Translations under genes and position numbers: made by a program
Part shown: piece by piece, positions 13,719 to 32,564 of the stretch
Position numbering within the stretch: position 1 is the first letter of the stretch
Layout of the letters: every line of letters begins with the position of its first letter
NCBI GenBank assembly: GCA_964458205.1
Contig: CAYWFJ010000001.1
Span: forward strand, 1 to 45,963
Reading direction: 5' to 3'
Origin: Candidatus Micrarchaeota archaeon
Lineage (GTDB): Archaea > Micrarchaeota > Micrarchaeia > Anstonellales > Anstonellaceae
Length of the DNA: 45,963 nucleotides
The notes under the pieces: model-generated
What the model was told of the DNA's origin: nothing
What the model saw: only the letters and a program-made list of their open reading frames with translations
The model's database searches: none

Positions 13719-13740
13719 GATGCATGGAAAATGGTATCAT

Positions 13741-13777
13741 GCGGCTGTTGAGTCGGGTGCGCCGACTGCCAGCCGCA
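13741..13777 (+). other. tRNA-acceptor-stem minihelix (tRNA-Gly(CCC)-derived) forming the predicted 5' leader of the tRNA
   Basis: GCGGCTG ttg AGTCGG gtgcg CCGACT gc CAGCCGC A. The 5' 8 nt and 3' 8 nt are identical to those of the tRNA that starts 5 nt downstream, and the 5' flank ATGCGGCTGT is also duplicated. Confidence 0.45.
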
Positions 13778-13782
13778 ATTAT

Positions 13783-13855
13783 GCGGCTGTAGTCCAGCCT
13801 GGTAGGATCTGAGCTTCCCAAGCTCGAGACCCGGGTTCAAATCCCGGCAGCCGCA
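13783..13855 (+). tRNA. tRNA-Gly(CCC), intron-less
   Basis: GCGGCTG TA GTCC AGCCTGGTA GGAT C TGAGC TTCCCAA GCTCG AGAC CCGGG TTCAAAT CCCGG CAGCCGC A. Canonical cloverleaf, 73 nt, no encoded CCA. Confidence 0.92.
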
Positions 13856-13951
13856 TCCCATTCATAATCTGGGCATATGTCCGCCGCTGGCATCATCATT
13901 TCCCCCGAAGTTTCGCAACAGTTTATAATGTTCAGTCCTCAATCGTTAAGC

Positions 13952-31107: not shown

Positions 31108-31533
31108 TTACTGCCACTTCTTCATCACAATGTTGGTCTGCGTCTTTTTTATGCCGCCTATGGCTCGCATCTCATCCACCCTTCTGTTGAAGGATTCCAT
31201 GTCCGGCGCTGAGAGCATGAGGGCAATGTCCATCTCGCCTGAAATTTCCCATACCAGGCTTACGCCCTCTTCCTTGCAGAGGGATTTGATGAGCTTTCCC
31301 GCCTCGACATCAGGCGAGGTGGCAAGGAACACGACCGCGGAGACGCCCCCGCTTTCCGCGATGTCCACGGTGAAGCGCCGTATTATCCCGCGCGAGGCAA
31401 GGTTGTTCACGCGCCGCCTGGTGGCAGGCTCGGACAGCCCGACTTTCTTCCCGATTTTCCCATTCGGGGTGCGCGCATCCTCGCGGAGTATTTCGAGTAT
31501 CTTACGGTCGATTTCGTCAATTTTCCACACCAT
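31108..31533 (-). CDS. Lrp/AsnC-family transcriptional regulator
   Basis: IDEIDRKILEILREDARTPNGKIGKKVGLSEPATRRRVNNLASRGII (HTH), then a RAM-like C-terminal domain. Start at ATG 31533. Confidence 0.8.
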   Translation of the reverse strand: MVWKIDEIDRKILEILREDARTPNGKIGKKVGLSEPATRRRVNNLASRGIIRRFTVDIAESGGVSAVVFLATSPDVEAGKLIKSLCKEEGVSLVWEISGEMDIALMLSAPDMESFNRRVDEMRAIGGIKKTQTNIVMKKWQ

Positions 31534-31633
31534 ATTGGCGATTCCGCGCGCAAGCAATATATGGGTTGCCATCCGCTGCCAAAAAAGGTTTTCAAAATGC
31601 CGCATCCGCAAGACGGGCGGCCCTGCTTTGCCA

Positions 31634-32332
31634 TCAGCCGCAATTCACAACAAGCTTGGCGGTCCCGTTCTGGATTTTGCCGACTGTGTAAGGCGAGTTG
31701 TACTTGAAGGCAATCCTGGCCTGGTACGACCTGCTTCCGCCGCACCAGTTGGGCACTCCCGCTTTCCCAAGCGAAACCGCCCTCTCTTCGCCAGGCGCGA
31801 AGCTTACGTTCCCTATCGTGCTCGCATTCCCGTCAACGCAGAAATTCCATGCCTGGGAATCCACATACACTTCGTCCAATTCCAGCCGCCATCTTTCGTT
31901 GTTTTTCATCACCATGCTCATGTTCATGCTGGTCGCGCCCCCGCACACCGCCCCTGCGCTTGCGGCGGCTTTTGACCCTGAGATAGCGAACGGCTTTGCC
32001 TGCCCTTGCCAATAAAGCTGCGACTCCTGCTGCATGATGTCTCCCGCTACTGATGGCGTGTAGCTGAGAAGCGACACCCCGACAAGCGCCACCACCAGGA
32101 CAGCGCCAAGAAGCATCAGGTATTCGGTGGCACCTTGCCCTCGCAAGGTGCCTGCAGTTGTGCCGCAGCGCAACTCAATCGCGCCCTGCGCACGCAGGGG
32201 GCGAGCAACCGACAAAGTCGATTCAATGGCGCCTTGCCCTCGCAATGCGTCAGGGGCTGCGCGGCAGCGCAGCTCATCTTCTGCCTGCCTTTTTGCCGCA
32301 AAACAGGATTGTTCCATGCACATATGGGCCAA
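31634..32332 (-). CDS. prepilin-like protein with an extended, internally repeated leader
   Basis: Genuine class III signal LRGQG/ATEYLMLLGAVLVVALVGVSLL, preceded in frame by two further R-[GA]-Q-G-A-I-E motifs. Possible starts: TTG 32332, ATG 32323, ATG 32317 or internal TTG 32173. Confidence 0.6.
   Translation of the reverse strand: MAHMCMEQSCFAAKRQAEDELRCRAAPDALRGQGAIESTLSVARPLRAQGAIELRCGTTAGTLRGQGATEYLMLLGAVLVVALVGVSLLSYTPSVAGDIMQQESQLYWQGQAKPFAISGSKAAASAGAVCGGATSMNMSMVMKNNERWRLELDEVYVDSQAWNFCVDGNASTIGNVSFAPGEERAVSLGKAGVPNWCGGSRSYQARIAFKYNSPYTVGKIQNGTAKLVVNCG
32120..32275 (-). repeat. tandem duplication (period 99 bp) of the segment encoding the prepilin leader/cleavage motif
   Basis: The 57-nt copies 32219-32275 and 32120-32176 align (GAGyTGCGCTGCsGC...TTGCGAGGGCAAGGyGCCAyyGAA). 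A third partial copy (CGTGCGCAGGGCGCGATTGAG) lies between them. Confidence 0.7.
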
Positions 32333-32339
32333 ACTCAGG

Positions 32340-32348
32340 TATATAAAA
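32340..32348. promoter_or_regulatory. shared TATA element TATATAAAA
   Basis: It lies 27 nt upstream of the tRNA-Gly(UCC) 5' end (plus strand) and about 17-23 nt upstream of the first ATG codons of the pilin gene (minus strand). Confidence 0.5.
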
Positions 32349-32374: not shown

Positions 32375-32564
32375 GCGGATGTAGTATAACCTGGCTAGTA
32401 TTTTGGCCTTCCATAAAATCAAGCGGTCCTCCGCTTTATTTTGCAGGCAAGTCAAAGGTCCGGGTTCAAACCCTAGGGGGCATGCAGTCTTCAGATGATC
32501 CCCCTGATGGTTCACCCCCAATCAGCATTCATGGGTGAGCTTGGTGAAAATCCCGGCATCCGCA
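32375..32564 (+). tRNA. tRNA-Gly(UCC) with two introns (36 nt at 37/38, 32414-32449; 80 nt in the T-loop, about 32471-32550)
   Basis: Hand-folded: GCGGATG TA GTAT AACCTGGCTA GTAT T TTGGC CTTCCA[36 nt]A GTCAA AGGT CCGGG TTCAAA[80 nt]T CCCGG CATCCGC A. All stems pair, giving a 74-nt mature length. Confidence 0.8.

Follow-up and report, generated by a model that had tools for sequence, protein, structure and literature searches.

The pilin gene and its lengthened leader

The window analysed here, a stretch of 45,963 nucleotides (nt) from a Candidatus Micrarchaeota archaeon of the order Anstonellales (contig CAYWFJ010000001.1, positions 1 to 45,963), carries on its minus strand a pilin-like gene in whose leader an archaeal prepilin-cleavage motif is repeated. 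The host genome (989 kb, 79 contigs, 54.8% G+C) is 81% complete. The translation of the open reading frame (ORF; 32332..31634, stop codon 31636-31634) contains MCMEQSCFAAKRQAEDELRCRAAPDALRGQGAIESTLSVARPLRAQGAIELRCGTTAGTLRGQGATEYLMLLGAVLVVALVG and carries the pattern [KR]-[GA]-Q-G-A-x-E four times, three times in good form and once degenerate, and a hydrophobic helix adjoins the last motif only. An earlier note, made from the sequence alone, had described three tandem cleavage motifs with the helix after the third; the ORF reads as quoted there, and a fourth, degenerate motif, K-R-Q-A-E-D-E, can now be added.

Read codon by codon, the leader runs M(32317)-E-Q-S-C-F-A-A-K-R-Q-A-E-D-E and continues into three units, each of which closes with R-[GA]-Q-G-A-x-E. 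The degenerate motif (motif 0, 32273..32293, minus strand, as are all features of this gene) follows the short leader M-E-Q-S-C-F-A-A and lies 51 nt upstream of motif 1. The in-frame units are 51, 48 and 51 nt long, fall into two subtypes and contain two hairpins each, here called the spacer hairpin and hairpin B. Unit 1 (32222..32272), whose hairpins are predicted in the RNA fold, has the spacer hairpin CTGCGC-TGCC-GCGCAG (32272-32257), a hairpin B with two mismatches, GACGCATTGC-GAGG-GCAAGGCGCC (32251-32228), and motif 1, R-G-Q-G-A-I-E (32242-32222). Unit 2 (32174..32221) scores 66.7 bits with R1, the covariance model made for the unit (with 57 positions and 17 pairs), and comprises the spacer hairpin AATCGAC-TTT-GTCGGTT (7 base pairs (bp), 3-nt loop; 32223-32207), hairpin B (32204-32179) and motif 2, R-A-Q-G-A-I-E (32194-32174). 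Unit 3 (32123..32173; 52.5 bits with R1) has the spacer hairpin AGTTGCGC-TGCG-GCACAACT (32175-32156) and a perfect hairpin B, GGCACCTTGC-GAGG-GCAAGGTGCC (32152-32129), and ends in the final motif R-G-Q-G-A-T-E (32143-32123), where the predicted cut falls between G (32140-32138) and Q (32137-32135).

A TATA-like element, TTTTATATA in the minus-strand reading, lies at 32340..32348, 22 nt from ATG 32317 and 16 nt from a second ATG (32323-32321); these three elements and TTG 32173, all listed in the earlier note, are present in the sequence. The gene has a positional ortholog in an independent assembly (locus L126; 78% protein identity), with the same Lrp/AsnC-family neighbour and a nearly identical promoter, in which the TATA-like element itself is unchanged. 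There the ATG is 21 nt past the TATA box, and the same TATA-to-start distance is seen in pilin genes with a single motif, as well as in the leaderless tRNA-Gly genes of relatives. This spacing makes the ATG at 32315..32317 the predicted start of a leaderless mRNA. The sequence of the unit 3 hairpin B is conserved in L126, and the unit 3 spacer hairpin recurs almost unchanged both there and in a paralog from another species (L018, genome G020).

Archaeal class III signal peptides of the DUF361/EppA type have Q at +1 and E at +5 (Pfam PF04021; PMC4471445, PMC4858521). The last motif and helix of the present gene, R-G↓Q-G-A-T-E-Y-LMLLGAVLVVALVGVSLL (the arrow marks the cleavage site), show both residues and the following hydrophobic helix (YLMLLGAVLVVALVGVSLL, 32066..32122), and this is the only part of the protein that Pfam Class_IIIsignal (PF04021) matches (aa 64-84, E 0.003). 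An AlphaFold2 model built on a 40-sequence homolog alignment (mean predicted local distance difference test (pLDDT) score 80.5) gives the mature protein (31637..32137) a long N-terminal helix (63-106, as 63-85 + 88-106) and a beta-sandwich head of ten strands with pLDDT >90, and leaves the leader unstructured (pLDDT ~50). For this model Foldseek ranks the subunit of the Sulfolobus acidocaldarius AAP type IV pilus first among PDB structures (E 8.7e-6) and also lists an archaellin and further archaeal pilins; the fold as modelled is that of an archaeal type IV pilin. Of 23 genomes in the genus, 22 encode an A24 prepilin peptidase that scores above the cut-off. The gene thus resembles known class III pilins in its final [KR]-G↓Q-G-A-T-E-Y and hydrophobic helix, in its predicted fold and in the presence of an A24 peptidase in the lineage. 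It differs in its leader: known class III leaders have a few to about 30 residues and are short and positively charged, whereas this one has 60 residues from ATG 32317 and three further copies of the motif (leaders of this kind hold 3-4 restated motifs), and would be of ordinary length only with a start at TTG 32173 or 32146. The public gene call (P0001, 160 aa, 31634-32116, minus strand) begins at ATG 32116 inside the transmembrane helix, so that the whole class III signal is missed.

Anatomy and covariation of the module

The anatomy of the module was read from seventeen 48-nt units in a gapless alignment. In gene orientation, the module (45-54 nt in the family) consists of ATT-GAG, the spacer hairpin, CTGC and an inverted arm. 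The spacer hairpin has 7 bp and a 3-nt loop in 48-nt units, and 8 bp and a TGCG loop in 51-nt units; its loop is TTC or TGCG, its stem sequence is free, and the T-G-C that follows it is invariant among the seventeen. The inverted arm reverse-complements the Q-x-A codons that follow it, reading S-N-L before QVA, G-T-L before QGA and G-R-L before QSA. In hairpin B this arm pairs with those codons around a 4-nt loop made from parts of the [KR] and [GA] codons. Because the arm and the next Q-x-A codons form this second hairpin, every module restates the cleavage motif.

Both hairpins covary. Pairing reaches 98% in the spacer hairpin, where 6 of 7 pairs have changed on both sides, and 88% in hairpin B, where 6 of 10 pairs show double changes; shuffles never attain these values, and slid controls fall to about 35-45%. 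A long-range helix between the arm and the previous motif was rejected in favour of the local hairpin (68% paired vs 88%). Over 35 units there are 549 Watson–Crick pairs, 6 G·U and 21 A·C. Wobble pairing is therefore not favoured, which fits DNA-type palindromes, or the making or repair of perfect palindromes, better than an ordinary selected RNA helix. In addition, the spacer peptides differ non-conservatively with the palindromes intact, which indicates that nucleic acid rather than peptide is kept there. The leader RNA is predicted to fold as expected, as a row of hairpins (−96.9 kcal/mol; z = −2.45 vs shuffles). The linker ATT-GAG occurs in 18 of 35 upstream copies (TTGAR in 26), as against 1 of 28 final copies and none of 39 single-motif genes.

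Quasipalindrome template-switch mutagenesis, or snap-back insertion, could explain near-perfect Watson–Crick stems without a preference for G·U. Template switching could also explain 'compensatory' changes made in one step and inserts that copy their flank both direct and inverted. By itself, however, it would not give linkers and loops that are conserved across genes and genera.

No Rfam family matches the region, either at the gathering score or at E ≤ 1. A kink-turn in the conserved internal loop was discarded after a hand check of the alignment, in which the non-bulged strand is T-G-C-N, not G-A. A CRISPR-like array or other tandem repeat does not fit either: the period falls short, the units have diverged from one another, and Tandem Repeats Finder (TRF) detects no array. 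A phase-variable slipped-strand repeat was likewise set aside, since the units are at most 77% identical, form two subtypes, are always multiples of 3 and give no TRF array.

Recurrence in pilin leaders and before a tRNA

Two other pilin-like genes of the same genome share this build, one with three motifs (contig C2: MASCSKACS-KGQSAIE, then QTSSAAGRLHAQSAIE, then KPAASAGRLRGQSATE and the helix) and one with four (contig C16). Tandem pairs of the degenerate DNA motif occur in the 989-kb genome in the three pilin-like genes only, at spacings that are all multiples of 3. The search for unit copies at other pilin genes that the earlier note had proposed yields none in this genome by DNA sequence; by motif or structure it leads to the two genes just named.

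The arrangement extends over the order. A frame-blind two-motif pattern gives 31 matches in 22 of the 176 genomes, from 8 of the 48 genera, vs 0 for a reversed control pattern. Apart from one match to an unrelated repeat, the remaining 30 measure 45, 48, 51 or 54 nt from start to start, although the pattern permitted 10 distances. The matches fall in four pilin families, with the mature N-termini EYLVLLAVVL, EYLVTYGWALL, EFMLYTAVFMF and E[LM]LAYAAFFF. Among 40 called homologs of the pilin, 31 have two motifs, six have three and three have one. A strict motif pattern finds 13 loci among all species-representative genomes, 11 of them in metagenome-assembled genomes (MAGs) of Candidatus Micrarchaeota, including Bilamarchaeaceae; the two loci in GC-rich bacterial MAGs are taken for chance matches. 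The covariance model R1 recovers all the pilin-leader units of this genome and one more site, in the leader of tRNA-Gly(CCC), and matches 18 of 42 genomes of the family at up to 12 sites per genome, almost always in pilin leaders. Sites elsewhere include one in an intergenic hairpin array (L112) and an in-frame module near the C-terminus of a non-pilin membrane protein (L110:1501-1556; G005 C6:72807-72862, minus strand), which reads ...MAIE, NSSANSARRSQGRTAIE, NAK.... In another contig of the present genome, a single ORF contains two complete tandem signal-plus-helix modules, MYRFLQQGSAEYLFLFAILLALAF...FRAQGATEYVVVLAVVIGVGLIAV (L005:1501, = G000 C58:3395, plus strand), a doubling that differs in kind from the hairpin units.

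These results bear on the view that the leader is a one-off recent tandem duplication, possibly for recombination between pilin genes, or else an assembly artefact. The earlier note had reported two long DNA copies 99 nt apart with a partial third between them. The two are present as 56-nt copies (32122-32177 and 32221-32276), and the 77% identity of units 1 and 3 at this distance speaks for duplication; the third copy also exists, though as a complete 48-nt unit of another subtype with a 7-bp/3-nt spacer hairpin. Against duplication, the units are diverged and of two subtypes, the final motif lacks their signature, units recur in independent assemblies across the order and in a tRNA leader, and the unit DNA has no further copies at the other pilin genes here. 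Misassembly is improbable because collapse or expansion does not produce diverged copies and because the architecture recurs in independent assemblies. The suggested recent duplication of a pilin 5′ end therefore does not hold, nothing supports a recombination substrate for exchanging pilin heads, and this whole explanation is regarded as very improbable.

The module in the 5′ leader of tRNA-Gly(CCC) occupies 13738..13788 on the plus strand (R1, 29.9 bits, E 8e-5), and the tRNA itself 13782-13858. The sequence reads GCGGCTGT-TGAG-TCGG.GTGCG.CCGA-CTGCC-AGCCGCA-ATTAT-GCGGCTGTAG..., in which a copy of the first 8 nt of the tRNA comes first, then a spacer hairpin between the same linkers, then the inverted copy, and last the tRNA. 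A 42-nt insert thus sits between the TATA-defined start and the tRNA. In about 15 relatives within the genus the site is empty and the tRNA begins 21-23 nt past its TATA box, which is exactly the position occupied in the window by the first copy of the tRNA start. One relative (G008, L134) has a homologous insert with identical flanks and a different spacer hairpin. RNase P RNA is present in all 23 genomes, so an insert in the tRNA leader can be removed. As a separate observation, tRNA-Gly(CCC) matches in several loci of G013, G008 and G010 (among L135, L145, L134, L146, L136 and L147) as two pieces, 1-39 + 39-75, about 50-57 nt apart; this suggests an intron at the canonical position there, and the copy in the window has none.

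Turnover is also evident at the pilin gene. Its pairing with the Lrp/AsnC-family gene is kept only in G013, G006 and L126, and elsewhere in the genus the regulator has no pilin neighbour. The pilin genes before the Lrp ortholog in the two genus genomes, G013 and G006, are both single-motif (MAFNALRG↓Q and MELRG↓Q). The L126 leader shares its last 45 nt with the window gene, and its interior holds one motif, the unit 3 spacer hairpin and then 108 nt of three or four unrelated, perfect hairpins without motifs.

Hairpins are abundant in this genome as a whole. Perfect hairpins are about twice as frequent as in shuffled sequence (407 vs 214), and 32 arrays of 2-7 different hairpins occur, with loops TGCG, TGC and TTC in gene orientation. 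Several arrays lie directly 5′ of tRNAs: three (G000 C8:1584-1759, C73:267-417 and C76:189-339) consist of 6-7 different perfect hairpins with 7-10 bp stems, starting about 5 nt upstream of tRNA 5′ ends. Of the 144 long-stem hairpins, 24 lie within 150 nt of the 20 called tRNAs; the ORF mask covers 96% of the genome, so that the placement of hairpins in coding or non-coding sequence is uninformative.

The nearest described analogue is the Rickettsia palindromic element (RPE) and other intragenic MITEs, or miniature inverted-repeat transposable elements (PMC10969869). RPEs, like the modules, lie in frame, are tolerated where the protein can bear an insertion, and are present or absent between relatives (PMC10969869); the modules are likewise multicopy, in frame in ORFs and variably present at orthologous sites. 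In contrast, RPEs are about 150 bp long and form families with conserved sequence and conserved peptide, whereas the modules measure 45-54 nt and are conserved in their linkers and loops alone. Their outer arms match the local target, restating the cleavage motif of the host gene or the 5′ end of the tRNA, and their main site is a signal peptide that is cut off. Nor do they have the conserved sequence with terminal inverted repeats of MITEs, and no transposase moving them in trans was found. A Y1/HUH transposase, which commonly drives structure-specific hairpin elements, was rejected as the driver: 6 of the 18 genomes with the module encode one and so do 6 of the 24 without it, which is no co-occurrence, and it is absent here. 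No report of the recurrence of the module in relatives and before a tRNA was found in the literature searched, and full-text searches and the type IV pilus surveys PMC4471445 and PMC4858521 turned up no account of repeated class III motifs or of hairpins in the leader.

The hairpins might instead form a functional nucleic-acid element, selected for acting on the transcript or on DNA, in which case translation of the units would be the mere price of lying behind a 5′-terminal start codon. Possible roles include protection of the 5′ end from 5′-3′ decay, tuning of the translation of an abundant surface protein, and binding of a factor. Covariation with free stems and conserved loops (TTC, TGCG) and linkers (TTGAG, CTGC) is what such an element would show, and the modules have the same orientation to transcription in pilin genes and in the tRNA leader. 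Most members of this pilin family have the doubled leader, the predicted fold of the region is better than that of its shuffles, and hairpin arrays lie directly 5′ of several tRNAs. However, G·U is not preferred over A·C, an unusual state for a sense-RNA helix under selection; hairpins are missing from close orthologs or are quite different there; about 15 relatives do without the copy in the tRNA-Gly leader; and no partner protein or Rfam RNA family is known. A functional element is thus a real possibility, at clearly lower probability than tolerated insertion.

Translation, cleavage and origin of the long leader

Several features concern the translation of the leader as a whole. No unit contains a stop codon in the frame of the gene. 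In nine of the 28 multi-motif genes the stretch from the first motif to the last is free of ATG, GTG and TTG, and in 11 more the sole candidate start is the TTG that encodes the leucine at −3; in many genes the −3 codon is CTG, CTT or another non-start codon. The first motif usually stands behind a normal start and a short basic leader (MKA↓Q, MKKG↓Q, MNKNLKG↓Q). In L126, the frame is open for 72 codons (P = 0.02 from composition, compared with P = 0.15 for the window gene) and the other frames contain stops. The preserved frame of the spacings, the missing internal starts, the TATA spacing and the open frame of L126 together lead to the long leader being taken as translated.

Alternatively, translation could begin at TTG 32173 (or 32146), leaving the upstream units as a structured 5′ untranslated region, that is, untranslated debris. 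A start at TTG 32173 would bring the leader to normal length, an ATG stands 8 codons ahead of Q in L126, the public gene call leaves out the upstream part entirely, and an open frame of the length seen here has, as said, P ~0.15 by composition. In opposition to these points, no Shine–Dalgarno-like sequence precedes TTG 32173, an ATG lies at the predicted transcription start in both orthologs, all 30 spacings found in the order are multiples of 3, and the related genes without an internal start, or with a non-start codon at −3, have no comparable site. An untranslated leader is accordingly judged unlikely. Between the two alternatives set out in the earlier note, the long translated leader with extra, probably unused, motifs is better supported, by the TATA-ATG distance, the frame and the spacings, and the internal TTG start less so.

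The final motifs of the multi-motif genes bear on cleavage. All 44 of them carry G or A at −1, which makes the site beside the helix look functional; K or R stands at −2 in 32 of these 44 final motifs of multi-motif genes and in 47 of 51 single-motif genes. In many multi-motif genes, including those at L099, L102, L105, L119 and L124, the final −2 residue is V, L, S or A (TLVG↓Q, TLLG↓Q, PLLG↓Q) and the first motif is canonical (MKA↓Q); in genes with a final −2 residue other than K or R the hairpin loop is often TCGG.

A perfect first and a relaxed last motif would fit removal of the units from the message, either by splicing of a bulge-helix-bulge (BHB)-type intron or by ribosomal bypass, joining the first short leader to the mature part. 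Programmed bypass elements, namely those of T4 gene 60 and the mitochondrial byps, are about 50 nt long, with a hairpin after a repeated codon. The units resemble bypass elements and BHB introns in this size and hairpin position and in flanking repeats that permit seamless removal; moreover, in-register deletion of units always yields a canonical prepilin, and the lineage is rich in non-canonical tRNA introns. In contrast to those elements, the units are in frame, stop-free and without an in-register BHB. Removed sequence need not be a multiple of 3 and stop-free, yet all units are, and G or A is kept at −1 in every final motif. Removal also fails its own tests: the hBHBh′ motif occurs in register in 0 of 28 genes in a strict scan, and relaxed criteria give 25 in-register matches vs 13-27 at out-of-register control offsets, which is no enrichment. 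A BHB intron was rejected on both scans, and programmed translational bypass because the units contain no stop or frame break. Splicing or bypass is therefore considered highly unlikely.

The explanation preferred here, and thought probable, is that the pilin leader has been lengthened by in-frame modules, is translated and is cut at its last G↓Q, the modules being tolerated insertions. Three in-frame two-hairpin insertions would have extended a class III signal peptide from about 10 to about 60 residues. Transcription would start about 22 nt past the TATA element at ATG 32317 to give a leaderless mRNA, the whole leader would be translated, and the hydrophobic helix would anchor the pre-protein. 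The A24 prepilin peptidase would then cut only at the last G↓Q beside the helix (G32138↓Q32137), so that the inserted peptide is discarded. The modules would belong to a Micrarchaeota-wide family of small palindromic insertions, gained and lost between close relatives, that persist where the 5′ part is removed anyway, in prepilin leaders by the A24 peptidase and in the tRNA leader by RNase P. They may be selfish DNA, or DNA generated by mutation (template switching), filtered so that the frame stays open and the final cleavage site intact.

A number of points weigh against tolerated, translated and discarded insertions. In this gene TTG 32173 (leader MRCGTTAGTLRG↓Q) and TTG 32146 (MRG↓Q) are possible starts, and the ortholog L126 has its internal ATG. 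The final motif lacks K or R at −2 in 12 of 44 cases, often where the first motif is a perfect minimal signal, a pattern for which this reading does not account. The conserved linkers and loops, with their strong covariation, could also mean functional selection. The PF04021 match scores 18 bits, below the gathering cut-off of 23.7. No A24 peptidase (PF01478) was found in this 81%-complete genome, and no mobilising enzyme for the module has been found, the check having covered the Y1/HUH transposase.

For the modules in general, two possibilities may be proposed together, with some reserve. One is a new kind of small element, either mobile or a product of repair or template switching, that inserts just past transcription starts, copies its target direct and inverted around a hypervariable spacer hairpin, and survives in removable 5′ parts; the other is a structural control element, not described before, in the 5′ part of Micrarchaeota genes that are highly expressed. 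That small palindromic insertions have an active source in very small genomes is shown by the empty and filled tRNA-Gly sites and by leader hairpins that turn over from strain to strain; arms templated by the target are not obviously explained by any known transposition mechanism. If the hairpins act on leaderless mRNAs, they would represent a new type of archaeal 5′ control element. A class III leader of 60 residues with several restated sites is also a natural test of site choice by the archaeal prepilin peptidase.

Gene callers mis-annotate pilins of this kind, and censuses miss or truncate them. The surface filaments of DPANN archaea are thought to mediate host attachment, and censuses of these filaments inherit the error in gene calling.

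The pilin gene is followed, 22 nt downstream, by the gene for the Lrp/AsnC-family (LysM-like) regulator (31108..31611, minus strand; Pfam and NCBIfam). On its other side, a tRNA-like 5′ half (GCGGATGTAGTATAACCTGG..., 32375-32564, plus strand) is not called by ARAGORN or Rfam; it is 100% conserved in L126. The TATA element at 32340..32348 lies about 25 nt from the 5′ end of this tRNA-like sequence (~32373) in the plus-strand direction, and appears from the sequence to serve both the minus-strand pilin gene and the divergent plus-strand tRNA gene. Being common to the two, it suggests a bidirectional promoter with two leaderless transcripts.

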